A stretch of 64,000 nucleotides of DNA from an uncultured Gammaproteobacteria bacterium. Its GTDB lineage: Bacteria > Patescibacteriota > Patescibacteriia > Magasanikbacterales > GWA2-37-8. A program made the position numbers and the translations under genes. The notes beneath the pieces were generated by a model that made no database searches, was not told where the DNA came from, and saw nothing but the letters and a program-made list of their open reading frames with translations. The DNA lies in NCBI GenBank assembly GCA_964634875.1, contig CAZWKA010000002.1, positions 15,590 through 79,589 of the forward strand, given 5' to 3'. Positions 15,282 through 44,423 of this stretch are shown here, piece after piece; the stretch's first letter is position 1, and each line of letters starts with the position of its first letter.

Positions 15282-15890
15282 TTAACGAGAATAAAACTCA
15301 ATGATTGCTTTGGCGTCAAAATTTGGATTTTCGGCAGTTGGGCTATTGAGCACTTTGCCGGCCAAATTTTTCGCTTCGATAGTAAGCCAGCTCGGGGCTT
15401 CAACCTTAGCAAGAGTTTCGCTCAAGTTTTCATATAACTTACTTTTTTTCTTAGTTTCTTTAATTCCAACTACGTCGCCTACTTTTACACGGTAAGAAGG
15501 AATATCAACATTTTTACCATTTACAGTAGTGTGTCCGTGGCCAACAATCTGGCGAGCGCTGCGGCGGGATTTTGCCAAGCCCAAGCGGTAGACTACATTA
15601 TCAAGACGGGATTCAAGGTAATTGAGCAAAATCTTGCTGGTATCACCGGTTTTTTTGGAAGCCTCTTCAACGTAGTTTGAAAATTGGCGCTCCAAAAGTC
15701 CGTAAATCTGTTTTACTTTTTGTTTTTCACGCAATTGTTTACCATAAGCAGAGAGCTTTGGTTTTTTCTTGTTTGGGCCATGCTGCCCGGCTGGGTAGCT
15801 GCGGCGAGTAATAGGGCATTTCGGGGAATCACAGAGTTTCTCTCCGAACTTGCGGCATACTTTATGTTTTGGTCTGAGATCGCGAGCCAT
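15282..15890 (-). CDS. rpsD: 30S ribosomal protein S4
   Basis: 'MARDLRPKHKVCRKFGEKLC...' is the S4 zinc-ribbon N-terminus, and an S4 RNA-binding domain follows. Confidence 0.93.
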   Translation of the reverse strand: MARDLRPKHKVCRKFGEKLCDSPKCPITRRSYPAGQHGPNKKKPKLSAYGKQLREKQKVKQIYGLLERQFSNYVEEASKKTGDTSKILLNYLESRLDNVVYRLGLAKSRRSARQIVGHGHTTVNGKNVDIPSYRVKVGDVVGIKETKKKSKLYENLSETLAKVEAPSWLTIEAKNLAGKVLNSPTAENPNFDAKAIIEFYSR

Positions 15891-17447: not shown

Positions 17448-17951
17448 CTATGGTTGAGGCGATTTTTTGTCACCCGGGTTGTGCACACCCTCTGCCCCGA
17501 CTGAAACCTCTCGGATTTCTGGAGAAATTTTGTAAACCCAAAATTTATACAGTAAAAAATTCCAGGCAACAGCAAGAGCAATGTTAGCGGTTCGGAAAAG
17601 TAGATAGTTGTAGCGTTCAGGCTGAATTACAATCAACTGGAGTCGCTCGGTAAAAAACCACATCCACAAAACTGAAATACCATAATTGGTGAGTGCTAAC
17701 AAATAAAATCGCACCATCTGTGAACGGGTAATCCCTTTAGCCTTGAAGGCCCAATACTTATTTAAGAAGAAAACGTAATTGAGGAGAATTGCCTGGTTAA
17801 TTATTACCGCTTGTACTGCAGTAAGGTGGACAAATTCCTTAAATAAAAACAAAGTCGTAATATCAAGGACAAAAGCACTAAACCCAATAAGGAAGTACTT
17901 GGCGAATTGAACTCGTGCCCCCCAAGCTTTTTGTAGAAAAATTTTAAGCAT
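17448..17951 (-). CDS. GtrA-family membrane protein (polysaccharide synthesis/translocation accessory)
   Basis: 167 aa with 4 TM helices. 'FAKYFLIGFSAFVLDITTLFLF' is the GtrA-like N-terminus. Confidence 0.65.
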   Translation of the reverse strand: MLKIFLQKAWGARVQFAKYFLIGFSAFVLDITTLFLFKEFVHLTAVQAVIINQAILLNYVFFLNKYWAFKAKGITRSQMVRFYLLALTNYGISVLWMWFFTERLQLIVIQPERYNYLLFRTANIALAVAWNFLLYKFWVYKISPEIREVSVGAEGVHNPGDKKSPQP

Positions 17952-19820: not shown

Positions 19821-19894
19821 AACAAAACGTAACAAATAATTACTTGGGCTATTCTAACTAAAAAAATCGCTCTTGTCTACGCCCTAAGAAACTG

Positions 19895-19923
19895 TTGACA
19901 AACTCTTATTTCTGCGCTATATT
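19895..19923 (+). promoter_or_regulatory. Sigma70-type promoter (TTGACA-17-TATATT) of cassette 2
   Basis: TTGACA at 19895-19900 and TATATT at 19918-19923. An AAGGAGA Shine-Dalgarno sits 8 nt before the ATG at 19959. Confidence 0.55.
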
Positions 19924-19958
19924 GGCATGTTGCCTTTTGCGCTAAGGAGAACAGAACG

Positions 19959-20369
19959 ATGTTGAAACTCTACATCTCTGCACGACAAATACTTGAAGCC
20001 CTCAAGGAGGGCACGTTCGATTTGGAACAGTCACTCATCATCCTGTGCTCCCCACCCGACAATCCTATCGCTGAACGCGTGGAGAGCTACGTGCAATACG
20101 CTGCTCACCAGAAAACGGACTTCCACAGCATCCTTCGGAGTGCCGAGGAACGTGGCCGACTGGTCGTCTGCCGCGACAGCATCTGGGAAAGTGGTGGGGT
20201 CAACTCGGGACCGTACATGTGGTTCCGGGATGAGCTTGAATGCAGAAACGTGGAGCTGATGTTCAGCTACTTCTTGCAGACCACGGTTACAATATCAAGA
20301 CGCGCTTCGGTCGACTTTCACATCCTCCTCGATCCCCACGCGAACCAGATCGCAATCGTCCAAGACTAA
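19959..20369 (+). CDS. Hypothetical protein (136 aa), high-GC orphan cassette 2
   Basis: Strong Shine-Dalgarno and GC-rich codon usage. A terminator-like hairpin follows at 20384-20446. No known domain. Confidence 0.45.
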   Translation: MLKLYISARQILEALKEGTFDLEQSLIILCSPPDNPIAERVESYVQYAAHQKTDFHSILRSAEERGRLVVCRDSIWESGGVNSGPYMWFRDELECRNVELMFSYFLQTTVTISRRASVDFHILLDPHANQIAIVQD

Positions 20370-20383
20370 CGGCGACACCCCTC

Positions 20384-20446
20384 AAAACACCCGTCACTAG
20401 CCCCACTGTTTGTTAGCAGACAGTAGAGCCAGCGGGTGTTTTTTGT
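20384..20446 (+). terminator. Intrinsic terminator-like structure (aaaacacccg...cgggtgtttttt)
   Basis: Outer 10-bp stem with a structured loop, followed by a T6 run. Confidence 0.45.
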
Positions 20447-20458
20447 AAGCGCACCTAT

Positions 20459-22420
20459 TTAATTTAAGGATTCCTTTTTAAAACTATACGCCTGCCCGCT
20501 TTTTTCTAAACGATACCTAAAGTGTTCGCGATTCTTAACATCAGTCTCAACCAGTGAACCATCGGCATCAAGCGCAAACGTTGGCCTGGTCAGTTCGCTG
20601 AGGCTATTAGGTTCCCGATTATAGACAGTGGTTTTTTCTGCAGTTATCTTCCAAACAGCTGCTTCGCGCTCTAGGACCACATAGTGCCAAACCTCTTTCT
20701 CACCCGATACATCGCTGATGATAACGGACAGTGGATTTTTACCGACCCACTGGCAGAACATTTGACCAGAGCCAAAGTTGTTCTGCACTGAAGCAAAGGA
20801 ACGCAAGTTTATACCATACTGATTTTCAAAGCTGCTGCAATCCATCCCACTCAAACGGTTGGAGCGGATATTCAACCGCATTTGGGTGATTTCAAACTGG
20901 CGATCCTTTTCCTCAGCGTCGTTAATAAGCTGGAATGATGGCAAGCTTTTTTGGCTGGCGAGTTCAGCTGGCAACCACGTTTTTGACCAGTGATATTCTA
21001 CAAAACTATTTCGTTTGGCTAACTGGTCTTCGGCCTTTTTGTACACTTTTCCAAGATGCAGACGATCTTCAATTGAAAGCTCGGGCAATTTATTTTCAAT
21101 CAGTGGCCGCAGCGCACGGATTGCATCAGCCGAAAGCTCGCCCAGATACTTGGCATCAAAATTCTGGCCACCGGCCAAATAGCGGTCAACATTTTTCTTA
21201 GCGATTTGGTAATCAACACTGGACAGTCCCACAACCACCAAACCTGCCAGCCCATAGGCCAAGAGCCCGTGCAACACGTACTTGAATTTTGAACGGACGA
21301 GTACGGCGAGGAAAAATAAACCTGAACCGATGAAAAACCAATATAAAAACCACTCAACATACAGGCGGAGCGTGGTAAAACCATAGACTTCCTGGTATAG
21401 GTTCATGCGGCGAAGCGCCGAAACACCAATCACCACCAACTGCCCAACTAAGATGACCTGTAAAATCCCGAGCAACACTTTGGCTGTAGCCGTGCGCCTA
21501 TAGGCATAATAGCTAAATAAAAGCACGATGCCAGAAATAACCAGAACGGCTACTAATTGGAAAAAACCTTGCCGGGCATACTCGGCGTATGTCAGACCAT
21601 TTTTAAGAACATACTCAGACCCGCCAAACAAATATTTAATTTGGATAAGTGTAAAAATGGCAAATAAAATATCCAAGAGGATAATGACAACAGTTGCAAC
21701 AGTTGCGTCGGGCGCATGAGTGCTCTCAGCGGGCTCAGCTAGTGCGTACTTTTCCTCAAAAATAAAATACAGTAAATTTGAGAGATACCAGGCCATGACA
21801 CTCGTACGGAACAAACGCCAAAAAATAGACGGCTCAGCGTGGAAATTAAAAATATTTTCGAGCCATCCGCTAAACACTGCGTCGGCAGAAGAGAACAAAC
21901 CTGTAAACAACGCGACGAGCGGCAAAGCAATAAGGATGCCCCAGGCAATTTTTTTGTAAACTTCTTTTTCTTCACCTTGCTCCGGACGAAAAATATCACG
22001 GTAGATCTTTAGCGTCTTATCGATTGTTTCATCAAATTTAAAAAAGACGGGAATATTTTTAAAGTAAAATAAATGCCCGTTCCGACGCAACGTAATAACA
22101 ATGGTAAAGAGGAAAAGCAGGACGATACTAAGTGCCACCACACCCTGGGCGGCAAAAAGATTGAGATACAAAAACCCAACTAGGCTAAGGAGTGTAAGCG
22201 GAAGACAAAGGTATACAGCCCAAGGATTTACTTTCGTTTTAGTACGCCACGCTACCACGAATAGCCCGACAACAAACAAAAGATTAAATAAAGCGAGTGA
22301 CAAACCATTTTCCTTGCCCCAAAAAAGCAGGTCATACAAAATAGCCGCGCCACAAGCAAACAAAACTAGTAATAAGCGCTGTTTGCGAACGAGTGTATGG
22401 ACCAAAGCATTTTCCGCCAT
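20459..22420 (-). CDS. Large polytopic membrane protein with a C-terminal soluble domain (hypothetical; DUF4153/DUF4173-like architecture)
   Basis: 653 aa. About 12 TM helices in the first ~400 aa, then a ~230 aa hydrophilic domain. No catalytic motif was recognised. Confidence 0.4.
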   Translation of the reverse strand: MAENALVHTLVRKQRLLLVLFACGAAILYDLLFWGKENGLSLALFNLLFVVGLFVVAWRTKTKVNPWAVYLCLPLTLLSLVGFLYLNLFAAQGVVALSIVLLFLFTIVITLRRNGHLFYFKNIPVFFKFDETIDKTLKIYRDIFRPEQGEEKEVYKKIAWGILIALPLVALFTGLFSSADAVFSGWLENIFNFHAEPSIFWRLFRTSVMAWYLSNLLYFIFEEKYALAEPAESTHAPDATVATVVIILLDILFAIFTLIQIKYLFGGSEYVLKNGLTYAEYARQGFFQLVAVLVISGIVLLFSYYAYRRTATAKVLLGILQVILVGQLVVIGVSALRRMNLYQEVYGFTTLRLYVEWFLYWFFIGSGLFFLAVLVRSKFKYVLHGLLAYGLAGLVVVGLSSVDYQIAKKNVDRYLAGGQNFDAKYLGELSADAIRALRPLIENKLPELSIEDRLHLGKVYKKAEDQLAKRNSFVEYHWSKTWLPAELASQKSLPSFQLINDAEEKDRQFEITQMRLNIRSNRLSGMDCSSFENQYGINLRSFASVQNNFGSGQMFCQWVGKNPLSVIISDVSGEKEVWHYVVLEREAAVWKITAEKTTVYNREPNSLSELTRPTFALDADGSLVETDVKNREHFRYRLEKSGQAYSFKKESLN

Positions 22421-22429
22421 ATATACAGA

Positions 22430-23497
22430 TTACATAATTACACCGCCACCTAGGCACTCGCCTTCTTTGTAAAAAACAGCAAATTGCCCTGGGGTTGGAG
22501 CACGCTCTTTTTTTTCAAAAACCACCAAGTAATCTTTTATAATTTCACAATCTTGAAGCGGTTGCCGATGGCGCAACCGTACTTGGCATTTTAACGGAAG
22601 CGTAGGCAGTTGTCCACTAATCCAATGCATATCGTTCACCGTAATTTCATTTTTATATAATAGCGGGTCAGAATCAAAACCGACCACCAGTTCGTTGGTC
22701 TCAAAATTTTTAGCGACCACAAACAACGGCCGCGTGTCTTCACCTCGCGTGCTCGGAGCTGCTACTCCCAAATTTCTTTGTCCGATAGTGTAGAATGCCA
22801 AACCATCATGTTTACCAACAAAAGTTCCGTCTGACATTACAATTTTACCAGGACTTGGTTTAATCCTGGTTTGCAAAAACTCTTTCATCGGCACCTCACC
22901 AACAAAGCAAATACCCATGCTTTCTTCTTTTTGGGCTACGGGCAGTTTAAATTTTTGAGCGAGCTCTCGGACTTCTGGCTTGGTATATTCACCCACTGGA
23001 AAAAGCGTGCGGGACAACTGAGCTTGGTTTAGTTGATGTAAGAAATACGTCTGATCCTTATTATCATCGATAGCCTGAACAAGGCTAAAAACTCCATTTT
23101 TTTCAGAGACCCTGGCATAGTGTCCAGTAGCTAAATACTCAAAACCAAGTTCTTGAGCCTTATTAAGCCAGAAACCAAACTTAATATATTTGTTGCACAA
23201 AACATCAGGATTTGGCGTACGCCCCGTTTCGTACTCCATAAACATGTAATCGAGCACCTTTGTTTGGTATTCTTTTGTGAAATCAAATTTTAAAATGGGA
23301 ATACCAATAGCTGCCGCTACACGGACTGCATCCTGGTATTCGGGTACCCAGCATGATTCCCCAAAATTATTTTTTCCATCATAATTTACCATGTAGGCCG
23401 CTGTAACAGCGAACCCTTTGGAAACCAAAAGCGCCGCAGCGACCGCTGAATCAACGCCGCCTGATAGAGCTATAAGAATTTTAGCTTTTGTATTCAT
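22430..23497 (-). CDS. mnmA: tRNA-specific 2-thiouridylase MnmA
   Basis: PP-loop 'ILIALSGGVDSAVAA'. Conserved Cys residues and a C-terminal beta-barrel. 355 aa. Confidence 0.9.
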   Translation of the reverse strand: MNTKAKILIALSGGVDSAVAAALLVSKGFAVTAAYMVNYDGKNNFGESCWVPEYQDAVRVAAAIGIPILKFDFTKEYQTKVLDYMFMEYETGRTPNPDVLCNKYIKFGFWLNKAQELGFEYLATGHYARVSEKNGVFSLVQAIDDNKDQTYFLHQLNQAQLSRTLFPVGEYTKPEVRELAQKFKLPVAQKEESMGICFVGEVPMKEFLQTRIKPSPGKIVMSDGTFVGKHDGLAFYTIGQRNLGVAAPSTRGEDTRPLFVVAKNFETNELVVGFDSDPLLYKNEITVNDMHWISGQLPTLPLKCQVRLRHRQPLQDCEIIKDYLVVFEKKERAPTPGQFAVFYKEGECLGGGVIM

Positions 23498-23968: not shown

Positions 23969-24298
23969 TTAGCTATTGCGACGAGCCTGCATGCAGTCTC
24001 GGCAATAAACTGGCTTGTCACCGGTAGGCTGGAAAGGAAGCTGGGTGATTTGAGTACCACAGCTAGCACAGTTCAAGTTGACACTGTACATTTGGCGAGG
24101 AGCGCGAGGACCGCGGCTCATACCCCCACCCATTCCTCCGGCTCCACCAGTACGATTTTGGCGAAACGTACGGTTACAGTCAGAGCAGTAAACCGGACGA
24201 TCCCCAGAAGGTTGAAAAGGCAATTGTGAGATATGAGCACCACACTGCGAACAGGTGAGGTCAACATCAAACATTTGACGATCAGTACCAAAGGCCAT
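23969..24298 (-). CDS. Tandem zinc-ribbon protein (two CxxC-x17-CxxC repeats joined by a Gly/Met-rich linker)
   Basis: Two internal repeats: 'LTCSQCGAHISQLPFQPSGDRPVYCSDC' and 'LNCASCGTQITQLPFQPTGDKPVYCRDC'. The linker is 'GGAGGMGGGMSRG'. Confidence 0.6.
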   Translation of the reverse strand: MAFGTDRQMFDVDLTCSQCGAHISQLPFQPSGDRPVYCSDCNRTFRQNRTGGAGGMGGGMSRGPRAPRQMYSVNLNCASCGTQITQLPFQPTGDKPVYCRDCMQARRNS

Positions 24299-25407: not shown

Positions 25408-25436
25408 TTGACAAAACGCATGCGAGGTGTAGCTTA
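25408..25436 (+). promoter_or_regulatory. Sigma70-type promoter (TTGACA-16/17-TAGCTT) of cassette 3
   Basis: TTGACAAAAC at 25408. A GGGGTGA Shine-Dalgarno-like element sits before the ATG at 25467. Confidence 0.4.
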
Positions 25437-25466
25437 AGACCAGTCAAATTTTGTTTGGGGTGACCA

Positions 25467-25766
25467 ATGTCTATCGTTGCCGCATTGATGCAAGCGAAAC
25501 TGACCTTGGGCTGTGGAGATCCACAACGTCCGACTCCACATGCTCGCTGCAGCAACCTGAAAGTTGTTGATCGGGCACGGCTCATTACCGAGCACGATTC
25601 TGACGAGGTCAGAGAAGCAAAACTGCAGCTCATCGAACAAGCCCGCGAACCAGACGCGCTCTTCCTGCTCTGCAAGTGCGGGCACTACCGCGCGATGGGG
25701 ACCGTAGTCGACATGCTCATTGGTCTTCGTCAGAAAAACTTCCCAGCCGGGGAACCCAGTGACTAA
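25467..25766 (+). CDS. Hypothetical protein (99 aa), high-GC orphan cassette 3
   Basis: GC-rich codons. Followed by a perfect 11-bp hairpin terminator at 25791-25826. Confidence 0.4.
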   Translation: MSIVAALMQAKLTLGCGDPQRPTPHARCSNLKVVDRARLITEHDSDEVREAKLQLIEQAREPDALFLLCKCGHYRAMGTVVDMLIGLRQKNFPAGEPSD

Positions 25767-25790
25767 AGGCCTACCCCGCCAAACCCGCAA

Positions 25791-25826
25791 GGGAGCGCTG
25801 CATCGCAGCGCTCCCTATTCATTTTT
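25791..25826 (+). terminator. Intrinsic terminator (gggagcgctgcatcgcagcgctccc followed by a T-run)
   Basis: A perfect 11-bp stem with a 3-nt loop, then 'tattcattttt'. Confidence 0.7.
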
Positions 25827-26832
25827 AAAGCGAATATCCATTTTCCACAATGATCTTCTCTACATGACCAGCATTTTCCGCTTCCATCAATTTCACCCGT
25901 AATTCTTTTGCTCCATCAAAACCATTCACATACGCCTTGTAATGTTTCTTCATAATCGCAAAACCCTTTTTATCACCCAATATTTTTTCAAATAAATGCG
26001 TATGCTCAACGAGCACGCGCATTTTTTCTTCTGGAGTAATTACCTGGTAATCGCGCTCACGATTAAACAGCCACGGGTTACCAAAAATTCCCCGGCCGAT
26101 CATCACACCATCGCAGCCAGTTTCCGCAACGCGTTGGCGAGCTTCAGTCAAATCTTTGACATCACCATTTCCCAGGATCAATGTTTTATCAGGCGATGCA
26201 TCATACTTATCCCGAATGGCGACCGCCCTGCCTATCTCCTCCCAGTGAGCCGGAACTGCTGACATCTCTTTTTTAGTACGGGCATGAATGGTGATCGCGG
26301 CAGGCTCTGCTTCGAGTAAGTTTGGCAGCCAGGTATCAAGGACATTTTTGTTATATCCCAGGCGGGTTTTGACCGAGACAGGCAGCTTCCCTGCTCCACG
26401 TTTGGTGGCCGCAATTATTTCTTGGGCAAGCTTGGGGTGTTCAATAAGCGCTGCACCAGAACATTGTTTGCCACTAATACTTTTTTCCGGGCAGCCCATG
26501 TTAATATCAATACCATCAAAGCCGAGCTCCTGGATCAAGAGCGCTGTCTCATAATAATTTTCTGGTTTGGAACCAAATACCTGAGCCACAATCGGCCGTT
26601 CAGATTCATCAAAAATAAAATCAGTCAAGAGCTCGGCACGACCGGGCGAGCAAAGGCCGTCGCACGAGACAAACTCCGTCCAGATGACGTCAGGTTTACC
26701 GTATTTGGCAATAACACGCCGAAAAGCAGCGTCCGTGACATTAGCCATGGGCGCGAGGACGAAAATAGGTTTGGGAAGATTTTTCCAAAAACCGGAAATC
26801 ATAAATAGTGTTCTGTTATAAATTTTTCTCAT
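25825..26832 (-). CDS. dus: tRNA-dihydrouridine synthase
   Basis: 'VLAPMANVTDAAFRRV', a TIM-barrel FMN-binding motif, and a conserved Cys ('GCP'). Confidence 0.88.
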   Translation of the reverse strand: MRKIYNRTLFMISGFWKNLPKPIFVLAPMANVTDAAFRRVIAKYGKPDVIWTEFVSCDGLCSPGRAELLTDFIFDESERPIVAQVFGSKPENYYETALLIQELGFDGIDINMGCPEKSISGKQCSGAALIEHPKLAQEIIAATKRGAGKLPVSVKTRLGYNKNVLDTWLPNLLEAEPAAITIHARTKKEMSAVPAHWEEIGRAVAIRDKYDASPDKTLILGNGDVKDLTEARQRVAETGCDGVMIGRGIFGNPWLFNRERDYQVITPEEKMRVLVEHTHLFEKILGDKKGFAIMKKHYKAYVNGFDGAKELRVKLMEAENAGHVEKIIVENGYSL

Positions 26833-31276: not shown

Positions 31277-31390
31277 ATGAACAGTGCCCTTAAGGCTCGC
31301 ATGAACCAAGCTAAAAAGAATACCAAAATCGGCAAAAAACTGAAGAAGAAAACCAAACACATTGTTAAGAAAAAAATCATCAAGACCTAA
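31277..31390 (+). CDS. Possible very small Lys-rich protein (37 aa): MNSALKARMNQAKKNTKIGKKLKKKTKHIVKKKIIKT
   Basis: An ATG-initiated ORF in a 150-nt gap, followed by a hairpin and T9 run at ~31400-31442. No clear Shine-Dalgarno. Composition resembles a ribosomal or nucleic-acid-binding peptide. Confidence 0.25.
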   Translation: MNSALKARMNQAKKNTKIGKKLKKKTKHIVKKKIIKT

Positions 31391-31464
31391 GTAACGACTT
31401 TAAACGACCAGCTTGTACTCCACCTGGTCGTTTTTTTTTAAAATTGACCTTTTTGAAGCGAACC

Positions 31465-31493
31465 TTGACAAAAGCGACTAAAAAATGTATAGT
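31465..31493 (+). promoter_or_regulatory. Sigma70-type promoter (TTGACA-17-TATAGT) for the secreted-protein gene at 31555
   Basis: 'ccTTGACAaaagcgactaaaaaatgTATAGTcagc'. An AAGGAAGG Shine-Dalgarno sits 7 nt before the ATG. Confidence 0.6.
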
Positions 31494-31554
31494 CAGCTGT
31501 CGTTCTTTTTGTTTAAACGGCTGAGACATAAGCGCATACAAGGAAGGCAAACAG

Positions 31555-32223
31555 ATGAGCAAGCGCGCATTCAAAGCTTGTCAATTACTGGTGCTGACCC
31601 TTGTAGGGCTCAGCGCTTACACCGCGATTAACTTTTCCAGCCCATCCCCAAAGAACGTGGATTACGACGAAAAGTACCTGGAAGCCTGGAACAGGTACAG
31701 AACAGCGTGTGAAAAGAACGAACCTCGACTCTACCCAATCCCCTTCGAAACCCTTGTTGAGGACAGGATCGCCCAAGAACCCGTCAGAGCCAAAAAAATC
31801 AAGCTTCTGAAAAAAACTGAAGCCAGTCCCACATCCTCTGGCTTGTCCAACCACGGAACCCTATCCTGTTACAACAAAAACTACTCTGAGCTAAACAGGG
31901 AATGCCGAGAAGTTCCTTCTTCAGCCCTTCCGCGCATGAATTTTTGTCCCTATTACTGGTTTCGACCCGTTCTTCAAACCAGAAACAGGGCGGTGGTTAA
32001 GGCTAGGACGGTAAGACAGAACTCCGAAAGAGTTAACTTGCCGGAAAACATTCGTTGGACCGCAAGCTTTGCCTATAGCTATACAGGCGCATGCCAAGCT
32101 CAGCACATGAACTGGGCAGTGCAGCTGCTAAAGCAAGGGCACCGTCCTGCTGATCTCGACCAGAGATTTGACACCCCCTCCTACTGCTGCACGGTTCCAC
32201 AGACCGTATCTAGAACCCGCTGA
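31555..32223 (+). CDS. Secreted Cys-rich hypothetical protein (222 aa), high-GC cassette 4
   Basis: N-terminal signal peptide 'KACQLLVLTLVGLSAYTA'. About 12 Cys residues. No known domain. A terminator hairpin follows at ~32260-32300. Confidence 0.5.
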   Translation: MSKRAFKACQLLVLTLVGLSAYTAINFSSPSPKNVDYDEKYLEAWNRYRTACEKNEPRLYPIPFETLVEDRIAQEPVRAKKIKLLKKTEASPTSSGLSNHGTLSCYNKNYSELNRECREVPSSALPRMNFCPYYWFRPVLQTRNRAVVKARTVRQNSERVNLPENIRWTASFAYSYTGACQAQHMNWAVQLLKQGHRPADLDQRFDTPSYCCTVPQTVSRTR

Positions 32224-32300
32224 TCGATCGGCCACGTCGATCGACCAGCACCCTAACGAACAGCTTTTTAGTTAAAAGGCTGTTCTTTTTTGTTTTACCA

Positions 32301-32329
32301 TTGACAACTGCGTTAAAAAATGGTAGTTG
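32301..32329 (+). promoter_or_regulatory. Sigma70-type promoter (TTGACA-17-TAGTTG) for the lipoprotein gene at 32351. Its sequence is similar to the promoter at 31465.
   Basis: 'aTTGACAactgcgttaaaaaatggTAGTTG' shares a 'TTGACAA..gcg..taaaaaatg.tag' pattern with the upstream promoter. An AAGGAGG Shine-Dalgarno sits 8 nt before the ATG. Confidence 0.5.
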
Positions 32330-32350
32330 TCCGGTAAAGGAGGGGTCCTG

Positions 32351-33016
32351 ATGAAAAATCTGCTCACAAACAGTGCCCTGCGAGCCGTCGGCTTGCTCGT
32401 CTTGGCTACCACCTGTCTTGGAGGCACGGGCTGCACCGATTTCATATCCAGGCTTGCAGGCGGCTCAAAGGTGGTGGACAAGGGCGAAGGCGTTGAACGA
32501 CCACATGTTGGCTGGTTAGGAGCGCGCGGAGTGACCTCGGCAGACAACGTGAGCGAAGAGGCGCACGAGGCTCTGGTTGTCGCCTTAAAGAAGCTCTGTG
32601 ATGAGGCAGGAAACCAAGAGGCCTGCCGGCAGCACCTGCGCTGCAAATTCGCAAACGACTGTGCAACCGGAAATGAGCCGGTCCTCATCCTGAGCGATTT
32701 GTCTGGTGAGGGTGGTGAGGGCCAACCCCCGATGGGAGTTGGGCAACCAACCTACTGCGATCCGGAGCATGCCCACTATTTTGCGCTACTCATCAAGCCT
32801 GAATCAGAAGCGCCAAACTCATCGGGCTTCTGGCATATTCGCGGCTACCTCCGGTGCATCATCTGTGGACATGAGATCAAACTCGGACGCTACCAGCTCA
32901 ATGATGCGCTGAGTGCGGACGAGGCCCGCTCCCAAGCCGCCTCGCGAATCAGTGACATCATCGAGTGGTTCAAGCGAGAAAGCTTGAGCTGGCCACGAAA
33001 CCCGACGATCAACTGA
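32351..33016 (+). CDS. Putative lipoprotein, Cys-rich hypothetical (221 aa), high-GC cassette 5
   Basis: Signal peptide with a lipobox-like 'LGGTGC'. Many Cys pairs ('EACRQHLRCKFANDC', 'RCIICGHE'). GC-rich codons. Confidence 0.5.
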   Translation: MKNLLTNSALRAVGLLVLATTCLGGTGCTDFISRLAGGSKVVDKGEGVERPHVGWLGARGVTSADNVSEEAHEALVVALKKLCDEAGNQEACRQHLRCKFANDCATGNEPVLILSDLSGEGGEGQPPMGVGQPTYCDPEHAHYFALLIKPESEAPNSSGFWHIRGYLRCIICGHEIKLGRYQLNDALSADEARSQAASRISDIIEWFKRESLSWPRNPTIN

Positions 33017-33043
33017 TCATAGGCCCCGCCCTACCACACAAAC

Positions 33044-33100
33044 CAGTTTCTGGCCCCTTACCAGTGTATTGTATCGGACATACTGGTAAGGCCAGAAACA
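33044..33100. repeat. Long near-perfect inverted repeat / extended hairpin (~22-bp stem)
   Basis: 'gtttctggcc(cc)ttaccagt...actggtaaggccagaaac'. It lies between convergent genes, immediately upstream of the terminator hairpin at 33101-33140. Confidence 0.6.
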
Positions 33101-33140
33101 AAAAACAACCCCTAACATGAGCTGGGGGTTGTTTTGTTTT
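33101..33140. terminator. Bidirectional intrinsic terminator (aacaacccctaacatgagctgggggttgtt followed by a T-run)
   Basis: A 10/11-bp stem with an A-run upstream and 'ttttgtttt' downstream. Confidence 0.6.
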
Positions 33141-33142
33141 AT

Positions 33143-33691
33143 TTATAGATTTTTACCCTCTTCACTAGCTACACCCTCTTCAGCAAAATGTTCAGACTCT
33201 TCTTTGTAGGTATCCCATTTCTTTTTTACTTCGCGAAGTAATTTATTTTTCCAGTACCCTACAAGGCTCTTTTTTTCTGCATACTCCCCGACCACTTCGG
33301 CGGCAAATTCGTTAAACTTGTTTTCCGTGACATCAAGAACGTTGTCCAATTTTCGCTTTACCTGGCCATACAGCATGTAGACCTGGAAATCCCACCATTT
33401 ACGCTTTAACTCCCGAATAATAATATCTTTCATCTCCAGCGCCATATCTTTGCGCTTAACATACTCCTCAACCGCAGTATCAACCAACTCTTCATACATT
33501 TCTTGGGTGGTATCACCAAACTCTTTAGTACGCATCTGAATTTGCTTAGAAAGTTCAAGTATGTCACTTTGAAGATTGCGGCGAAGCATCCTGCCCTTTT
33601 CAGTCATGAGGAGTCCGACGATAGTACCACCGACAAGTCCTCCGAGGAGCATACCTTTTTTAAAGGTGCTAAACTGGTTGCAGTTGTCCAT
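33143..33691 (-). CDS. YtxH-like (DUF948) stress protein
   Basis: N-terminal Gly-zipper TM 'GMLLGGLVGGTIVGLLMTEKGR' followed by long K/E coiled-coil regions. Confidence 0.55.
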   Translation of the reverse strand: MDNCNQFSTFKKGMLLGGLVGGTIVGLLMTEKGRMLRRNLQSDILELSKQIQMRTKEFGDTTQEMYEELVDTAVEEYVKRKDMALEMKDIIIRELKRKWWDFQVYMLYGQVKRKLDNVLDVTENKFNEFAAEVVGEYAEKKSLVGYWKNKLLREVKKKWDTYKEESEHFAEEGVASEEGKNL

Positions 33692-36517: not shown

Positions 36518-36590
36518 CGGGCTATAGCGCAGTTGGTAGCGCGCATGCATGGGGTGCATGAGGCCGTGGGTTCAAGTCCCACTAGCCCGA
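36518..36590 (+). tRNA. tRNA-Pro (anticodon GGG)
   Basis: A manual fold gives a 7-bp acceptor stem (CGGGCTA/TAGCCCG), a GCGC D-stem, and a CATGC/GCATG anticodon stem. The loop is A-T-GGG-G-T with G37. The T-arm is GTGGG-TTCAAGT-CCCAC and the discriminator is A. CCA is not encoded. Confidence 0.8.
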
Positions 36591-36627
36591 CACATTTACG
36601 GAAAATTACTCCTCAATTATTGAGCTG

Positions 36628-36656
36628 AAAACACCGCATCGTTGTGGTGTTTTTTA
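36628..36656 (+). terminator. Intrinsic terminator after tRNA-Pro (acaccgcatcgttgtggtgttttt)
   Basis: An 8-bp stem (one G-U pair) with a 4-nt loop and a T5 run. Confidence 0.6.
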
Positions 36657-36684
36657 GTCCTTCCTTTCTTCGATCTCAAAAACC

Positions 36685-36788
36685 GGTTCGAGAGCGTTTA
36701 CCGAGCTGATCCGTTTTGATTTATTTTGCGTAGAGTTAGCTCCAATTTTTGGTTCGAGTCTGACCAGCATACCATATAGGACTCGAAC
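36685..36788. repeat. tRNA T-arm-like fragments (three copies of 'ggttcgag', including an inverted pair 'ggttcgagtc...gactcgaacc')
   Basis: 'tggttcgagtctgaccagc' resembles the tRNA-Pro 3' part 'gggttcaagtcccactagc' (about 14 of 19 identical). An inverted partner lies at 36779-36788. Confidence 0.4.
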
Positions 36789-36820
36789 CTATCAGTTCTG
36801 GGGAAAATATGATACCTTAA

Positions 36821-37324
36821 GTGAATATTATGAAACACGACTTGTTAATAACTCGTAGAGGCCAGGTGTTGGAACAATTCATCGCCGTCGAACACCTGAT
36901 CGCAGGGCTAATCTCCTTTCATTATCTGGGGAGGTTTGACCCATCTTTTACCCTCAATTTTTTAGGCGATCCTTCAATAGGCTTTGCTTTCAAGAAAAAT
37001 ACTGTCTTGCTTATATTTAATGATGAAATCAAACCATTTATTAACGATTTAGATAAGGTTAACAGCATAAGAAACAAGTTTGCCCACCAGCCACTAATGC
37101 GCCTGGATCAGACTTCAGATGATTACTATTTCAGAGACCCTGGTGACAGCCAGCCTGTAAATATTAAGAAGGACCCGGCCGTCCTCTATGATGAGTTTGA
37201 AAAAACACTCCCTAATGTGCTTTCGGCCCTACGAGCCATCGCTGATAAAAGGAAATGGTCCATGATACCAGATAAGAATATTTTTCCTATTAGCGGCTCA
37301 GTTTATCTACCCCCAACAACATGA
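36821..37324 (+). CDS. HEPN-domain protein, Abi-like (Rx4H motif); putative abortive-infection/RNase effector. An ATG at 36830 is an alternative start.
   Basis: 'VNSIRNKFAHQP' contains R-N-x-x-x-H, the HEPN/Abi_2-type signature. The gene is AT-rich, in an island next to a tRNA, and has an ATGA overlap with a small downstream ORF. Confidence 0.45.
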   Translation: MNIMKHDLLITRRGQVLEQFIAVEHLIAGLISFHYLGRFDPSFTLNFLGDPSIGFAFKKNTVLLIFNDEIKPFINDLDKVNSIRNKFAHQPLMRLDQTSDDYYFRDPGDSQPVNIKKDPAVLYDEFEKTLPNVLSALRAIADKRKWSMIPDKNIFPISGSVYLPPTT

Positions 37325-37503
37325 TTAAAAAGACAAATCAGCCTCTTAGCGAGGAGGCGATAAAAAACTGGCATAATCTTTTTGGTGCCACTAAGACAAT
37401 CTTAAAAAGGCTTCTCGAGGAAGGCTATACCCTCAATGATGGGATTCTTCTTCCGCCCTGTCCAGGCACTTCATCAGAACAGTCTGACTTAAAGAAACCT
37501 TGA
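37321..37503 (+). CDS. Small protein (60 aa) translationally coupled to the HEPN/Abi-like gene
   Basis: The ATG overlaps the upstream stop (ATGA). A perfect-palindrome terminator follows at 37554-37578. Confidence 0.35.
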   Translation: MIKKTNQPLSEEAIKNWHNLFGATKTILKRLLEEGYTLNDGILLPPCPGTSSEQSDLKKP

Positions 37504-37553
37504 AATGAGACTCTCTAGTTCGGAAAATACGTAATCTGGTCGACACATATATA

Positions 37554-37578
37554 AACAACGGAATTCCGTTGTTTTTTG
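37554..37578 (+). terminator. Intrinsic terminator (aacaacggaattccgttgtt followed by a T6 run)
   Basis: A perfect 8-bp stem around an EcoRI-like loop, then 'ttttttg'. Confidence 0.7.
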
Positions 37579-37613
37579 TTTTTAAACCGTCTTATTTAGC
37601 TAATTATTTCTAT

Positions 37614-37642
37614 TGACAAAATTACTGTATGGTGGTATAAGT
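37614..37642 (+). promoter_or_regulatory. Sigma70-type promoter (TTGACA-17-TATAAG) upstream of cassette 6
   Basis: 'TTGACAaaattactgtatggtggTATAAG'. It implies a ~140-nt leader before the ATG at 37790. Confidence 0.45.
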
Positions 37643-37789
37643 ATTTGTTCTTTGTAAGAAGATTTCCAGCTTTAATTTCAGTATATTTAGCAAAATAGAT
37701 TGAGTTGAAGGCTGAAAATTCAGCACTTCCTCTTTGCCGGGGTGGCAAGGAGCGAGCCCTTTACCAAAAGGGCAGAAAATAGGACAGCA

Positions 37790-38251
37790 ATGAGTACTCT
37801 GCGCGCACTAGCGCACCTCGAAGAGCAACTTGGTCCAGCTCGGTGGCACGAACTGATCGACTCGGCGAACACTGGAAAGGTCAAGGCGCTCTGCGACGAA
37901 TTGCTTATCCCGACAACCATGGTGGTCGGGGGTCGCACCTACGACATCCTCAGCGTTGAAGGCAATATCGGTAGCGGACACGAGCTGGTCTGCCTAGCGC
38001 AGGAGTTGGATGCCCACTTGGGACGCGAGGAGCGCATGCACCTGCTCGATCACCAACAAGAAATCCCGAGTCTCCTTGGAAAAATCAAAATCATTTTCAC
38101 GGATGACACGAGTGCGGATGATGCCCACGGCAGCATCACTTCGATCGAGTGGGATAAAGGGTGTAGGCAGTGGACGTGCTTTTGGTGCAGGCTTGACAGC
38201 ACCATCATCTACCGGGGACGCAACATACGCGTACTGCGCCGTCGCTCGTAA
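37790..38251 (+). CDS. Hypothetical protein (153 aa), high-GC orphan cassette 6. A GTG at 37742 is an alternative start.
   Basis: GC-rich codon usage. A terminator follows at 38324-38370. No domain recognised. Confidence 0.4.
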   Translation: MSTLRALAHLEEQLGPARWHELIDSANTGKVKALCDELLIPTTMVVGGRTYDILSVEGNIGSGHELVCLAQELDAHLGREERMHLLDHQQEIPSLLGKIKIIFTDDTSADDAHGSITSIEWDKGCRQWTCFWCRLDSTIIYRGRNIRVLRRRS

Positions 38252-38323
38252 AAAGCCTTGAACTGAGACCTAAAACTTCTCCACCGACCAGGGCGCGCAG
38301 AACATTTCGCGCCGCTGGTCACT

Positions 38324-38370
38324 AAAAACAACAGTCTTAAACTTAAAACTGTTGTTTTAATTTTTTTTAA
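38324..38370 (+). terminator. Intrinsic terminator (aaaaacaacagt...actgttgtttt followed by T8)
   Basis: An 11-bp stem with a 12-nt loop, then a long T-run. Confidence 0.6.
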
Positions 38371-38550
38371 AAAAAAGGCTCTAACATAGTCCACCCAAGC
38401 CGACGGAAATATAAAACAGCATAATCTGCTGTTTTATATATTTTTTACTAAAACCTTGCAATTTTATTAGGTATAGGAGTAGGGTACAAGAAAGCTAGGT
38501 ACCCCATTCAGCTCAAGCTGAAGATGAGCTTTCAACCCAAGGAGGTCGTG

Positions 38551-39240
38551 ATGCGTGACGAAGGTGAACGAATTGGTCAAATCTCTGAGTGGCGCAATGG
38601 AAACGGTTCAGAAAGACAAGAGCCAATCTGCATGCTCGATCTGGCTTTTATCCTACGCCAACTGTCTGCCGCTTCGGGGGTGAGTACGACATATAGGCTG
38701 GCAACGGAAGGGATGCTGCTTGGTTTACAGGAGATGTCTGAACAACACCCTGTCAGCTGCACGTTCCTCGCCGCGCTCTACCGTAACTTGTATGAGGGCG
38801 GCCAAGAAGAGCGCGGTTTTGAAGCTGAACTGCGGGATTACTCTCTCGTCGCCGCGAAAGTTCTGGAACAGCTTTCCAAGAACCTTACCATCACCCCGCC
38901 CAACTCTGAAAATATCGAACACTCAGTGGTAAAGCAGAACATCTTAAGACAGCTTGTCGGGATCAAGCTGATGACCGCTCAACACTTGGAAGTCCTGCTT
39001 CATGACCTGTCCGAGATGAGACCCGAGATCACTGCCCTTCTGCCAAAGAGGGTGGGAAGAAGTGTGTGGGGAAGTGACTGGCAGGAAGGGAAACACCTTA
39101 TTATCCCTGGAGAAGGTGTAGGAGAAGAGGATACCGAAATACTTCCGAGTAGCGCCCTGAGCTTGCTGGTGCGTCTCAGCCTAGGATTGGTTCTTGCAGA
39201 CAAGCTCCAGAAGGCGCTGCAACCGACCCTCACCCACTAG
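38551..39240 (+). CDS. Hypothetical protein (229 aa), high-GC orphan cassette 7
   Basis: An AAGGAGG Shine-Dalgarno sits 5 nt before the ATG. GC-rich. A perfect-hairpin terminator follows at 39272-39305. Confidence 0.45.
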   Translation: MRDEGERIGQISEWRNGNGSERQEPICMLDLAFILRQLSAASGVSTTYRLATEGMLLGLQEMSEQHPVSCTFLAALYRNLYEGGQEERGFEAELRDYSLVAAKVLEQLSKNLTITPPNSENIEHSVVKQNILRQLVGIKLMTAQHLEVLLHDLSEMRPEITALLPKRVGRSVWGSDWQEGKHLIIPGEGVGEEDTEILPSSALSLLVRLSLGLVLADKLQKALQPTLTH

Positions 39241-39271
39241 ACAATATCCTGCTTTCACCTAAACCCAGTAA

Positions 39272-39305
39272 CCCGGCGCTAACTAGCGCCGGGAATTTCA
39301 TTTTT
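39272..39305 (+). terminator. Intrinsic terminator (cccggcgctaactagcgccggg followed by a T-run)
   Basis: A perfect 9-bp GC stem, then 'aatttcattttt'. Confidence 0.7.
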
Positions 39306-39498
39306 ACACTTGACTTTACTCTTCTTCAGTCATAGTATCCCTAGCAACCGAGACTTGCCCCAACAAAATTGCTATCTTACGACTGAATGAATCGTGGCAT
39401 AAAAACCAACCAGACCCGCTGTTTGATTAAGACCGGGATACTACCCGAACTATCAACCCCCGAATCTGGGCCAACTAGCACACCACGCGGAGGTCAGC

Positions 39499-39861
39499 AT
39501 GCTAGACCACAAAGATACCCGGTTCACTTTCAGCCTCCAAAACCGAATCTACGAAGCAGTGGGCTTTCTTAATCCAGGAGAAGCTAATTGTCTTGGAACC
39601 GAGATGCTGCAACGCACTGCCGGCGAAAACGGCGGGGCGATTGGGAAAGAAGACGAGGAGTTCATTATACACTGGATTAACGAGCTACCTGTCGAACTCC
39701 AGCCTTATTGGCTCGTGACCCAACGCCTATACGAAGGCAATATGCAGCGAAATGTTTCTTGTCTTGCGTGGTGCACAGAGACGGGTCGGTGGTACCGCTT
39801 TTGGGACTGGCTTGGATATAGCTGGTTTCCCAGGTGTCTTGTACTCCGACGCATCACCTGA
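39499..39861 (+). CDS. Hypothetical Trp-rich protein (120 aa), high-GC orphan cassette 8
   Basis: A GGAGG Shine-Dalgarno before the ATG. The C-terminus is 'RWYRFWDWLGYSWFPRC'. A bidirectional terminator hairpin follows at 39923-39948. Confidence 0.4.
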   Translation: MLDHKDTRFTFSLQNRIYEAVGFLNPGEANCLGTEMLQRTAGENGGAIGKEDEEFIIHWINELPVELQPYWLVTQRLYEGNMQRNVSCLAWCTETGRWYRFWDWLGYSWFPRCLVLRRIT

Positions 39862-39922
39862 AATCATACCGAACTAAGCTGTAGACTTTTCAAAAAGGAA
39901 AACAGCTTGGTTCACAAAATAA

Positions 39923-39950
39923 AACACTCTCGATTTTATCGAGGGTGTTT
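39923..39950. terminator. Bidirectional terminator hairpin (acactctcgattttatcgagggtgt)
   Basis: An 11-bp stem with one G-U pair. A T-run follows on the minus-strand reading, so it fits as the terminator of the nucleotidyltransferase gene. Confidence 0.5.
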
Positions 39951-39979
39951 TACATAGATAGAACCGACCACAACACAAA

Positions 39980-41065
39980 CTAAAGCTCAACCAAGGTCTG
40001 ATCACCAATAATCAGTCGATGCGGGCCTTTTTCGGATCTTGGCAGAACCACAGCATCCTTACCAATAATGCTTTCAGTAATCGCCTCGGTTGTTTCGAGC
40101 CGACAATTATTAAATACAATTGAGTTATCAATAGCCGTGTTCTTAACGGTGGTATTGGACCCAATAGTAGTGTACGGACCAATACTACAATTTTCCAAAT
40201 AACAACCTTCACCGATAATCAATGGACCGCGCAAGGAAACATTCTTACCCATGACGGTATTTTTACCAACAGCAACTTTTCCTTCCTGGCGCGTGTCGGC
40301 CAGACACGAACCTTCCAGACGGAAAACGCTGGCAGGAAGCTCGCCAAACAAAAGTTGATTAGCTGCAATAAGGTCGTTGGGCTTGCCGGTATCTTTCCAC
40401 CAGCCGGTAATTTCTCGATAGCCGACTTTATAACCATTCTTTAAAAAATACGAATGAATACTCGAAATCTCATACTCTCCACGAGGCGATTTTTCAATAT
40501 GATCAAAAGCCTTAAAAAAATTACTGGCATACAAATAAATACCCGTCACAGCAAAATCACTTGGAGGGTTTTTTGGTTTTTCAATGATATCAATCAGCTT
40601 ACCACTAGCATCAAACTCGGGCACGCCAAAACGTTCTGGATCGGGGACTTTAGAAAGAGCCAACATGCAGTCCAAACTTTCCCGTTCGAACACCTCAAAC
40701 AACGGCACGAGACTTCCAAGCACAATATTGTCTGACAAGTAGAACATGAAGGGGTCGTTCCCGATAAATTTCTCCGCACATTTCACAACGTGAGCAATAC
40801 CCTGTGGGCCGCCTTCCTGCTCAAAACAGACCACCTTAATCCCCCACCGGCTGCCATCACCGACAGCATCAGGAATTTGGGTTTCACCGGGGTTGGTATT
40901 GATATAAATCTCTTCAATTCCAGCTTCAACTGCTTTTTCAATAGCATGAAAAATCATTGGCTTATTAGCCAGTGGGATAAGGTGCTTATTGATAGTGGTC
41001 GTAATCGGTCTAAGACGCGTTGCTCGTCCCCCACCGGTTAAAATTGCTTTTTTAATTTTAGACAT
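39980..41065 (-). CDS. Sugar-1-phosphate nucleotidyltransferase (RmlA/GlmU-like N-terminal domain + C-terminal left-handed beta-helix hexapeptide repeats)
   Basis: 'KAILTGGGRATRLRPITTTINKHLIPLANKPMI' is the G-x-G-T-R-L motif. The C-terminus has hexapeptide repeats ('IGPYTTIGSNTTVKNTAIDNSIV'). An ATG at 41065 directly abuts the upstream gene's stop; the ORF track extends to 41101. Confidence 0.75.
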   Translation of the reverse strand: MSKIKKAILTGGGRATRLRPITTTINKHLIPLANKPMIFHAIEKAVEAGIEEIYINTNPGETQIPDAVGDGSRWGIKVVCFEQEGGPQGIAHVVKCAEKFIGNDPFMFYLSDNIVLGSLVPLFEVFERESLDCMLALSKVPDPERFGVPEFDASGKLIDIIEKPKNPPSDFAVTGIYLYASNFFKAFDHIEKSPRGEYEISSIHSYFLKNGYKVGYREITGWWKDTGKPNDLIAANQLLFGELPASVFRLEGSCLADTRQEGKVAVGKNTVMGKNVSLRGPLIIGEGCYLENCSIGPYTTIGSNTTVKNTAIDNSIVFNNCRLETTEAITESIIGKDAVVLPRSEKGPHRLIIGDQTLVEL

Positions 41066-43401: not shown

Positions 43402-44423
43402 TTCCTTAATTGAGATGCCGAAGCCTTTCTTGACTTTGTAATTGCCTGGCGCGCTTTGGAGAACGTCCGACGGTTACCAAAAAGCTCAAGCCAGGCTTTG
43501 AGAATACCAGGTTTAAACAATAAAAAATAGACGAACTTCTTTGTTTCATACCACAGAACCCACGGAAAATCAAGGATAAGGTTCTGCCAATACTCGTTTT
43601 TATAGAGAGTCGCCAAGTGGTTTTTATAGCTATGGTACGCAACATAGTCTGACTGTGTCCGCTTACCGATCGCGGCGGCAAGATCATCTAATTTAGCAGC
43701 ATGCTTTGCCGTGCGGTCGTGATAGGCCAGAGCCGAGGGAACTACATAGGAGCAGAACCCGCTCGCACGCAAACGGAAAGCCAAATCAACATCTTCTTTG
43801 TACGCAACATAAAGGCTATCAAATACTCTGTTGGCTGGTAATAAAACCGCCTCAACACTACTTCTCCTAAACACAGGTAAGGCGCCAGAAACACCAAACA
43901 CCTCTTCAACTCCCTTGTTACTCCCAACTTGCCAACTTTCCCCTGCCCGACGTTCGATTACCCGACGATTTCTAAGCACTTGTAAGCCGAGTGAATCAAT
44001 AATATTCGTAAAACCATCTTCCAGCTTTCCACTTATTGACCGATTGAAATTCCAACTCATCAAACGCGGCGTAACCCCGGCTGCAGCAGGTCGCTGTCCC
44101 AGGGCTTCAATTAATTTTTTAAAACAATCAGAATCCAAATACATATCCTGATTGAGCAGTGCAACATACTCACTAGTACTTTCGTTAAAAGCTTGGTTGT
44201 GTGCTTTCGCGAAACCAGTGTTCGTACTATTTTTAATGAGACGAGATGATTGTTTTAGGGTTTTGAGCTCTTTTTCCAAAATCATGACAGTATCATCGGT
44301 GGAGGCATTATCAGTTATAATAATATCCCAGTCAGCGTATGTTTGCTGCTTAAGGGACTTAAAAAGAAACGGCAGGTACTTTGCGCCGTTCCAGGTAACT
44401 AATTGTACAGTACATGTTGCCAT
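43389..44423 (-). CDS. Glycosyltransferase family 2
   Basis: 'VQLVTWNGAKYLPFLFKSLKQQTYADWDIIITDNASTDDT'. Confidence 0.78.
   Translation of the reverse strand: MATCTVQLVTWNGAKYLPFLFKSLKQQTYADWDIIITDNASTDDTVMILEKELKTLKQSSRLIKNSTNTGFAKAHNQAFNESTSEYVALLNQDMYLDSDCFKKLIEALGQRPAAAGVTPRLMSWNFNRSISGKLEDGFTNIIDSLGLQVLRNRRVIERRAGESWQVGSNKGVEEVFGVSGALPVFRRSSVEAVLLPANRVFDSLYVAYKEDVDLAFRLRASGFCSYVVPSALAYHDRTAKHAAKLDDLAAAIGKRTQSDYVAYHSYKNHLATLYKNEYWQNLILDFPWVLWYETKKFVYFLLFKPGILKAWLELFGNRRTFSKARQAITKSRKASASQLRKWFV

Follow-up and report, generated by a model that had tools for sequence, protein, structure and literature searches.

Two adjacent GC-rich genes, ORF1 and ORF2, in a 64,000-nucleotide stretch of contig CAZWKA010000002.1 (assembly GCA_964634875.1; the whole stretch is called the window below) raise the question of what they are and how they came to lie among the backbone genes of a cellular chromosome fragment. 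A first-pass annotation, made from the letters alone, had described them as a tandem pair of secreted, cysteine-rich orphan proteins with look-alike promoters. We found that each open reading frame (ORF) has the anatomy of a self-contained gene, that both proteins are orphans, that both genes are absent from the nearest relative and that both belong to a codon-usage class distinct from the backbone. We consider it probable that the locus combines the anatomy of a phage moron with products that are located in the envelope or outside the cell. The two genes would form a lineage-specific accessory islet of 1.75 kb, flanked by a gene for a 37-amino-acid protein and a ytxH-like gene, which are convergent backbone genes, and we infer that this islet was gained rather than lost.

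To place the locus, we compared it with 80 genome loci encoding relatives of the adjacent transketolase. A single one of these was syntenic, L002 (CAZINT010000002.1), which is labeled "uncultured Gammaproteobacteria", probably unreliably; the transketolase relatives next in line came from Saccharibacteria/Patescibacteria and Nitrospirota metagenome-assembled genomes, and two metagenome scans returned no close relatives. Positions 31391-33214 of the window (1.8 kb) correspond to 170 bp in L002 (12003-12172), where the 37-amino-acid gene and ytxH are convergent across an interval with two terminators. Because the same convergent genes are separated by 1.8 kb in one genome and by 170 bp in the other, the ORF1/ORF2 pair is an insertion or deletion difference, a point that had been missed in the first-pass annotation. 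The 170 bp of L002 contain no remnant of ORF1 or ORF2, tblastx for this synteny break was empty, and flanking direct repeats, a target-site duplication and mobility genes were all absent from the islet. An assembly chimera or contaminant DNA could also account for a segment of atypical GC content and codon usage. We find this hardly credible: the independent Logan assembly (SRR12762304) is 100% identical across 9,264 bp that include both junctions, so the islet is no assembler artefact, and in addition host-type promoters and terminators bound the segment, its bidirectional terminator is shared with ytxH and several similar islets lie on the same contig.

The two genes lie adjacent on the same strand where they had been annotated, and both are richer in GC than the window mean of 44.5% (Table 1), with a GC content at third codon positions (GC3) that compares with 0.41-0.47 in the neighboring genes. 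The left edge of the islet is a hairpin that we recognized by reading the sequence (stem AAACGACCAG/CTGGTCGTTT, 12-nt loop); it went uncalled in the terminator scan since the loop maximum of the scan is 8 nt. The alignment with L002 ends near this edge, at 31390. The terminator at the right edge acts on both strands and is therefore common to ORF2 and the convergent ytxH-like gene on the minus strand. The first-pass annotation had given each gene a promoter, a Shine-Dalgarno sequence and a terminator of its own, which was upheld for the ORF1 promoter (P1), both Shine-Dalgarno sequences and both terminators. For the putative ORF2 promoter (P2) it was upheld only in part, with a perfect −35 box, a poor −10 box and no call from the consensus scan. 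In a public gene call, ORF2 begins at TTG 32327 and has 229 amino acids; we took ATG 32351 as the start because the TTG falls inside the putative −10 region and a perfect Shine-Dalgarno sequence stands 7 nt before the ATG. ORF1 and ORF2 proved unrelated when their proteins were compared (E = 0.28), and thus they are in tandem by position and did not arise by duplication. The islet would accordingly be pictured as two unrelated, self-contained units, each with a promoter and a Shine-Dalgarno sequence ahead of the ORF and a hairpin and intrinsic terminator behind it.

Table 1. Features of the ORF1/ORF2 islet, synteny breaks and further GC-rich ORFs of the window, and conservation of flanking genes in L002 (aa, amino acids)
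Feature	Position	Strand	Description
Hairpin and T9 run	31402-31439	+	Terminates upstream 37-aa gene; left islet edge; from sequence reading
Promoter P1	31465-31493	+	TTGACA-17-TATAGT; 11/12 consensus match; house-type cTTGACAAAA −35 box
ORF1 Shine-Dalgarno	31540-31547	+	AAGGAAGG
ORF1	31555-32223	+	222 aa, basic, 8 Cys, 50.5% GC, GC3 0.57
GC-rich hairpin across ORF1 stop codon	32219-32249	+	No U tail; z = −6.9 with terminator
ORF1 intrinsic terminator	32258-32295 (scan: 32258-32285)	+	12-bp stem, then TTTTTTGTTT
Putative promoter P2	32301-32329	+	TTGACA-17-TAGTTG; TG one base upstream of −10 hexamer
ORF2 Shine-Dalgarno	32337-32343	+	AAGGAGG, 7 nt before ATG 32351
ORF2	32351-33016	+	221 aa from ATG, acidic, 9 Cys, 57.7% GC, GC3 0.64
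Long hairpin, ORF2 3′ untranslated region	33046-33100	+	About 22 bp, 2-nt bulge; z = −5.8 with terminator
Intrinsic terminator	33102-33145 (scan: 33102-33135)	both	Bidirectional, called on both strands; right islet edge
Synteny break 1	19822-22552
Synteny break 2	25420-25870
Synteny break 3	31391-33214		Contains ORF1 and ORF2
Synteny break 4	36593-39986		After tRNA-Pro
Further GC-rich ORF	19959-20369	+	One of six, 51-64% GC
Further GC-rich ORF	25467-25766	+	One of six, 51-64% GC
Further GC-rich ORF	37742-38251	+	One of six, 51-64% GC
Further GC-rich ORF	38524-39240	+	One of six, 51-64% GC
Further GC-rich ORF	39499-39861	+	One of six, 51-64% GC
Further GC-rich ORF	60511-61230	−	One of six, 51-64% GC
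Glucose-6-phosphate dehydrogenase/6-phosphogluconate dehydrogenase fusion			86% aa identity, window vs L002
Transketolase			84% aa identity, window vs L002
37-aa Lys-rich ORF			100% aa identity, window vs L002
ytxH-like			73% aa identity, window vs L002
CCA-adding enzyme			89% aa identity, window vs L002
PilT			88% aa identity, window vs L002

To determine if either protein belongs to a known family, both were searched against 5.8 billion proteins, where each matched itself only, which bears out their description as orphans. When 1.84 billion representatives were scanned exhaustively with HMMER, the only credible match of ORF2 was again the protein itself. One candidate from the exhaustive search, a match of P0003 to ORF2 (E = 6 × 10−4), was rejected, as it counted one 52-residue stretch five times in the identical repeats of a 733-amino-acid repeat protein. 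Nothing was found for ORF1 or ORF2 in NCBIfam, PHROGs, PADLOC, the PDB sequences, viral contigs or plasmids, and in Pfam there was no family match beyond a sub-threshold one to DUF7919 (PF25535). This match pairs ORF2 residues 46-103 with profile positions 17-68 (E = 3 × 10−4; 21.2 and 21.6 bits) and remains with mature ORF2, and a reversed-sequence control reached at best E = 0.17. We do not regard ORF2 as a member of DUF7919, given that the bit scores fall below the gathering score of 27, that the match spans under half of the 126 profile positions and that the exhaustive search gave no supporting homolog; literature searches on DUF7919 and on the run and study accessions found nothing. No known cytoplasmic family matched either protein, so they did not turn out to be conserved cytoplasmic proteins. 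The search for paralogs that the annotation had proposed for the genome was made in the window, L002 and the 80 transketolase loci, and none was found there. The pair are, judging from these searches, two singleton protein families with predicted export signals that are new to known proteins.

We also considered if the two frames are genes at all. At the local composition, the probability of an open frame arising by chance is 5.6 × 10−5 for 222 codons and 2.6 × 10−4 for 221 codons. Both frames have a correctly spaced Shine-Dalgarno sequence and a signal-like N-terminus, ORFs in alternative frames at the locus have no Pfam match, and an Rfam scan of the locus gave generic hairpin matches that all scored far below gathering, with no family for the long hairpin. 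Based on the improbable frame lengths, the ribosome-binding sites, the signal-like N-termini and the empty Pfam and Rfam results, we accept ORF1 and ORF2 as protein-coding genes, the products of which are predicted to be exported. It is very improbable that one or both are instead frames that opened by chance in foreign or non-coding DNA of high GC content, or that the region is a structured RNA. Stop codons are few in GC-rich DNA, the antisense strand of the locus itself carries a 138-amino-acid ORF, no homolog is available to show protein-level conservation and AF2 confidence is low, all of which would fit such a reading; yet frames of this length are improbable (P about 10−4 to 10−5), a spaced Shine-Dalgarno sequence, a signal peptide with n-, h- and c-regions, a promoter and a terminator are found on each frame, no Rfam family is present and their codon class, described below, has further members that are conserved at the protein level.

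The features of the two proteins point to the cell envelope or beyond. Both begin with K/R residues followed by a single short hydrophobic segment, with no second hydrophobic segment in either protein, and the N-termini are shaped like a signal peptide, not like a membrane anchor. In ORF1 the N-terminus reads MSKRAFK / ACQLLVLTLVGLSAY and offers AXA-like candidate sites, such as that between LSA and YT after residue 21, in agreement with the signal peptide that had been annotated. At the pattern level ORF1 has what is expected of a substrate of Sec and signal peptidase I, namely a positively charged n-region, a hydrophobic h-region 10-15 residues long and small residues in positions −3 and −1. 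A further transmembrane segment is absent, the top 19-residue Kyte-Doolittle window outside the N-terminus reaching 0.06. The PROSITE pattern PS00013 for lipoproteins reads {DERK}(6)-[LIVMFWSTAG](2)-[LIVMFYSTAGCQ]-[AGS]-C, with the Cys at positions 15-35 and K/R in the first 7 residues. The ORF2 sequence LATTCLGGTG-C28, together with K2, satisfies a pattern of this type, and so the lipobox-like signal claimed for ORF2 was recovered as well. ORF2 resembles bacterial lipoproteins of the Lgt/LspA pathway in its K/R-containing n-region, its 12-residue h-region and its Cys28; it differs from them in the absence of L at −3 and in a second Cys at position 22, which has T at −1. From these patterns it appears that ORF1 and ORF2 are exported and that ORF2 is probably lipidated.

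The cysteine counts of the first-pass annotation did not stand. It had given ORF1 about 12 Cys, where we count 8, one of them within the signal peptide, and had given ORF2 many CxxC and CxC pairs, where we find 9 Cys, a single CxxC pair and none of the CxC type. Even so, the Cys content of the pair is 3-4 times that of the backbone (3.8% vs 0.9%). Mature ORF1 is basic (K+R 30, D+E 19) and mature ORF2 acidic (K+R 20, D+E 27). The proposed structure prediction and Foldseek search gave no confident fold: the single-sequence AF2 models were unusable (pLDDT 42 and 40), with confidence in ORF1 limited to a helix at residues 1-25, and Foldseek against the PDB found nothing better than E = 0.25 and TM = 0.2, so these matches were disregarded. 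In the low-confidence model, residues from about 69 to 105 in the mature part of ORF2 form a helical hairpin that bears Cys, and the C-terminal part consists of three strands plus a helix with one CxxC. In our proposal, ORF1 would pass through Sec and be cleaved by signal peptidase I to yield a basic protein of about 200 residues with 7 Cys, released beyond the cytoplasmic membrane, and ORF2 would be exported to become an acidic protein of about 190 residues that most likely carries a lipid anchor at Cys28 and has 7 further Cys.

We next compared the locus with the known systems that it most resembles. A phage moron is an independent ORF with its own promoter and terminator and a deviating GC content that lies between genes adjacent in a related genome (PMC3594210). 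ORF1 and ORF2 are like the morons HK97 gene 15, lambda bor and lom in having their own promoter and terminator, a GC content unlike that of their neighbors and a position at which the flanking genes of a related genome adjoin each other; lipoproteins and envelope proteins are also frequent among moron products. Unlike morons, the pair lies in a cellular chromosome and not in a prophage, among housekeeping genes: it is flanked by genes for transketolase, the glucose-6-phosphate dehydrogenase/6-phosphogluconate dehydrogenase fusion, the CCA-adding enzyme and PilT in collinear order with L002. It has no PHROG or viral-contig match, and its promoters are of the host type. Functionally the locus resembles a moron, although it does not lie in a phage genome. 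The pair also shares with the lineage-specific ORFan islets of uncultured or streamlined bacteria the lack of homologs, the synteny breaks, the atypical composition and the exported or surface products, and differs from them in comprising two genes only, in lacking a mobility gene and in having a codon usage that is common to many separate islets and kept in a positional ortholog of 29% identity. Phage morons and lineage-specific ORFan islets are the closest known kinds, and the pair is a fresh instance of an ordinary kind. Alone, ORF1 and ORF2 are two more singletons in the pool of uncharacterized accessory genes of uncultured bacteria.

A role at the envelope or outside the cell is conjecture on our part: the proteins might mediate contact with other cells, serve in the exclusion of phages or act together as effector and immunity protein. 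The first-pass annotation had seen in them candidates for adhesion or host interaction in a symbiont with a reduced genome, which is speculation. The last of our three roles can be made specific, with basic ORF1 as a secreted toxin or bacteriocin-like effector and acidic ORF2 as its membrane-anchored immunity lipoprotein. The genes are adjacent, the charges are opposite (K+R/D+E of 30/19 and 20/27), both proteins have export signals with a lipobox in ORF2, and the locus is accessory and lineage-specific. We nonetheless judge this reading improbable, as a strong terminator and a promoter lie between the two genes, which are transcribed as separate units rather than as the co-transcribed pair that it calls for, no toxin, immunity or defense domain was found and no dedicated transporter or secretion gene adjoins them.

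The pair does not stand alone in this chromosome in its unusual composition. The backbone is collinear with L002 at 75-79% nucleotide identity and is interrupted four times in about 25 kb, and every synteny break in the window contains GC-rich ORFs without Pfam or PADLOC families. Six further such ORFs were identified (Table 1), most of them with their own cTTGACAAAA-type promoter and several also with a hairpin terminator; within the region covered by L002, all lie at synteny breaks. The relative synonymous codon usage (RSCU) of ORF1 and ORF2 is uncorrelated with that of the backbone (−0.01 and 0.08) and correlates with that of the other GC-rich ORFs (0.32 and 0.47), whereas in 23 of 23 backbone genes the order is reversed, with a mean correlation of 0.67 to the backbone and 0.07 to the GC-rich ORFs. 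We conclude that ORF1, ORF2 and at least six family-less ORFs of the window make up one codon-usage class distinct from the backbone, which the first-pass annotation had missed. ORF1 and ORF2 would thus be part of a GC-rich, family-less, fast-diverging accessory class that is scattered at synteny breaks.

Members of this class can be followed into other genomes. The break-2 ORF (25467-25766), which is small and contains Cys, has a counterpart in L002 (6127-6411) at the same position and with a conserved promoter, and the two proteins share 29% identity while the flanking genes share 73-89%. At break 4, window positions 39475-39699 match L002 17883-18107 at 33% identity. The ORF at 60511-61230 (64% GC) has one homolog among the 5.8 billion proteins, with 38% identity, at 2208-2903 of a second locus, L086 (JGI 3300029286, Ga0247841_10000633), where it has 50% GC and adjoins glycosyltransferase genes of 34-37% GC. 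The picture of a GC-rich gene in a low-GC backbone therefore recurs in a second organism. From these sequence comparisons, the GC-rich class is, in our reading, real coding sequence that diverges very fast.

The positional ortholog at 29% identity means that the GC-rich class can be old and fast-evolving, and it bears on the alternative in which ORF1 and ORF2 were present in the ancestor and the L002 lineage deleted them. Their orphan status would then result from very fast divergence and not from recent acquisition. With one relative only, either direction of change would fit, the regulatory elements are of the host type, and an ORF of the same class was kept at the same position in both genomes. 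We hold this alternative to be unlikely, although it deserves serious consideration, in that the 170 bp of L002 are without a remnant and the codon usage of ORF1 and ORF2 is uncorrelated with the backbone.

Several points count against our own account, in which a moron-like islet encoding envelope or extracellular proteins was gained. With a single related genome, the comparison fits loss as well as gain, and promoters and terminators as host-like as those of the islet would be unexpected in very recent foreign DNA. The −10 box of P2 (TAGTTG) is weak. ORF2 does not conform to the canonical lipobox L-[AS]-[GA]-C, its residues −3 to −1 being G-T-G with G in place of L, and export is argued from patterns.

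A broader interpretation is that this genome and L002 maintain a standing pool of GC-rich, self-promoted small genes that turn over or diverge far faster than the backbone, as the positional ortholog of 29% identity with its conserved promoter does, so that ORF1 and ORF2 would not be two accidental insertions. We think this improbable. The driver could be cassettes exchanged time and again with a GC-rich pool of mobile genes that is still unsampled, or else locally biased mutation or gene conversion, and if such a standing pool exists it would continually furnish new proteins, exported and containing Cys, that could interact with hosts or phages. The recurrence of one codon class and its retention in a highly diverged ortholog is the most unusual aspect of the locus. 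If the pattern is genome-wide, it would offer a tractable case for the origin of orphan genes in poorly sampled bacteria and for composition that has not ameliorated.

The first-pass annotation had also inferred a duplicated promoter module or co-regulation from sequence shared by the two promoters. P1 and P2 have the elements TTGACAA..GCG..TAAAAAATG in common, and the pattern TTGACA-N8-13-AAAATG, which was defined post hoc, occurs within the 64 kb at these two promoters only, in keeping with that description. However, the usual −35 form of this genome is cTTGACAAAA, as seen at nine intergenic TTGACA sites, so TTGACAA(AA) is not particular to the pair. Among 378 pairs of TTGACA sites the P1-P2 likeness ranks first, narrowly (22 vs 21 and 20), and in alignments of intergenic regions the P1 region scores 25 against the P2 region and 27, 27, 26 and 26 against unrelated intergenic regions. 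Given the general −35 form, the narrow lead and the unexceptional intergenic alignment, we regard the resemblance as mostly the house style of the genome and find no support for a duplicated promoter module, since the likeness is hardly above that of any two promoters. The shared GCG..TAAAAAATG spacer could still serve in co-regulation.

ORF1 and ORF2 each have, in the interval between stop codon and terminator, an additional GC-rich hairpin without a U tail, and that of ORF2 confirms the long inverted repeat annotated ahead of a terminator at the end of the locus. These long hairpins may function in 3′ end stabilization or processing. No significant structure was found in the 5′ untranslated region of ORF1. 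The attC site of an integron is an imperfect hairpin with extrahelical bases and the core sites R″ (RYYYAAC) and R′ (GTTRRRY). The ends of the ORF2 hairpin, GTTTCTG...CAGAAAC, fit neither core site in either orientation and ORF1 lacks a comparable site, and we rejected this identification. A repetitive extragenic palindrome or miniature inverted-repeat transposable element was likewise rejected, because the hairpin is unique in the window and the sole other match to an arm (18/20) is in coding sequence with no partner arm. That match lies at 43873-43892 on the minus strand, inside a glycosyltransferase ORF; its chance expectation is 0.01 per window. It is probably a coincidence.

Some observations were made at the other synteny breaks. 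At break 1, mnmA-like and alaS-like genes that are adjacent in L002 are 2.7 kb apart in the window, separated by a gene for a 653-residue membrane protein with backbone-like GC and by a single GC-rich ORF that is read from the opposite strand. What looked like a gene remnant at this break in L002 is the C-terminus of the neighboring mnmA-like gene and is uninformative on direction. At break 4 the window has a single tRNA-Pro(GGG) at 36518-36591, followed by a 3.4-kb GC-rich islet. L002 differs there in that two tRNA-Pro-like copies (15743-15820 and 17703-17778) flank a segment of 62-70% GC that encodes two lipobox-bearing proteins, one with DUF3455 (E = 9 × 10−10), and that resembles a tRNA-targeted island.

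Three neighboring genes also drew our attention. The 37-amino-acid Lys-rich ORF (31277-31390, plus strand), just 3′ of the transketolase gene and with its own hairpin and T-run, encodes a protein without a family that is completely conserved in L002 despite differing DNA, and it is a conserved micro-protein. The fused glucose-6-phosphate dehydrogenase/6-phosphogluconate dehydrogenase (26884/26977-29373, plus strand) has about 800 residues and is kept in L002. The only other Cys-rich ORF nearby, at 23969-24298 on the minus strand, encodes a 109-residue protein with 8 Cys and two zf_Tbcl_2 treble-clef zinc fingers (E = 1.6 × 10−28), which is of a cytoplasmic type and unrelated to ORF1 and ORF2.

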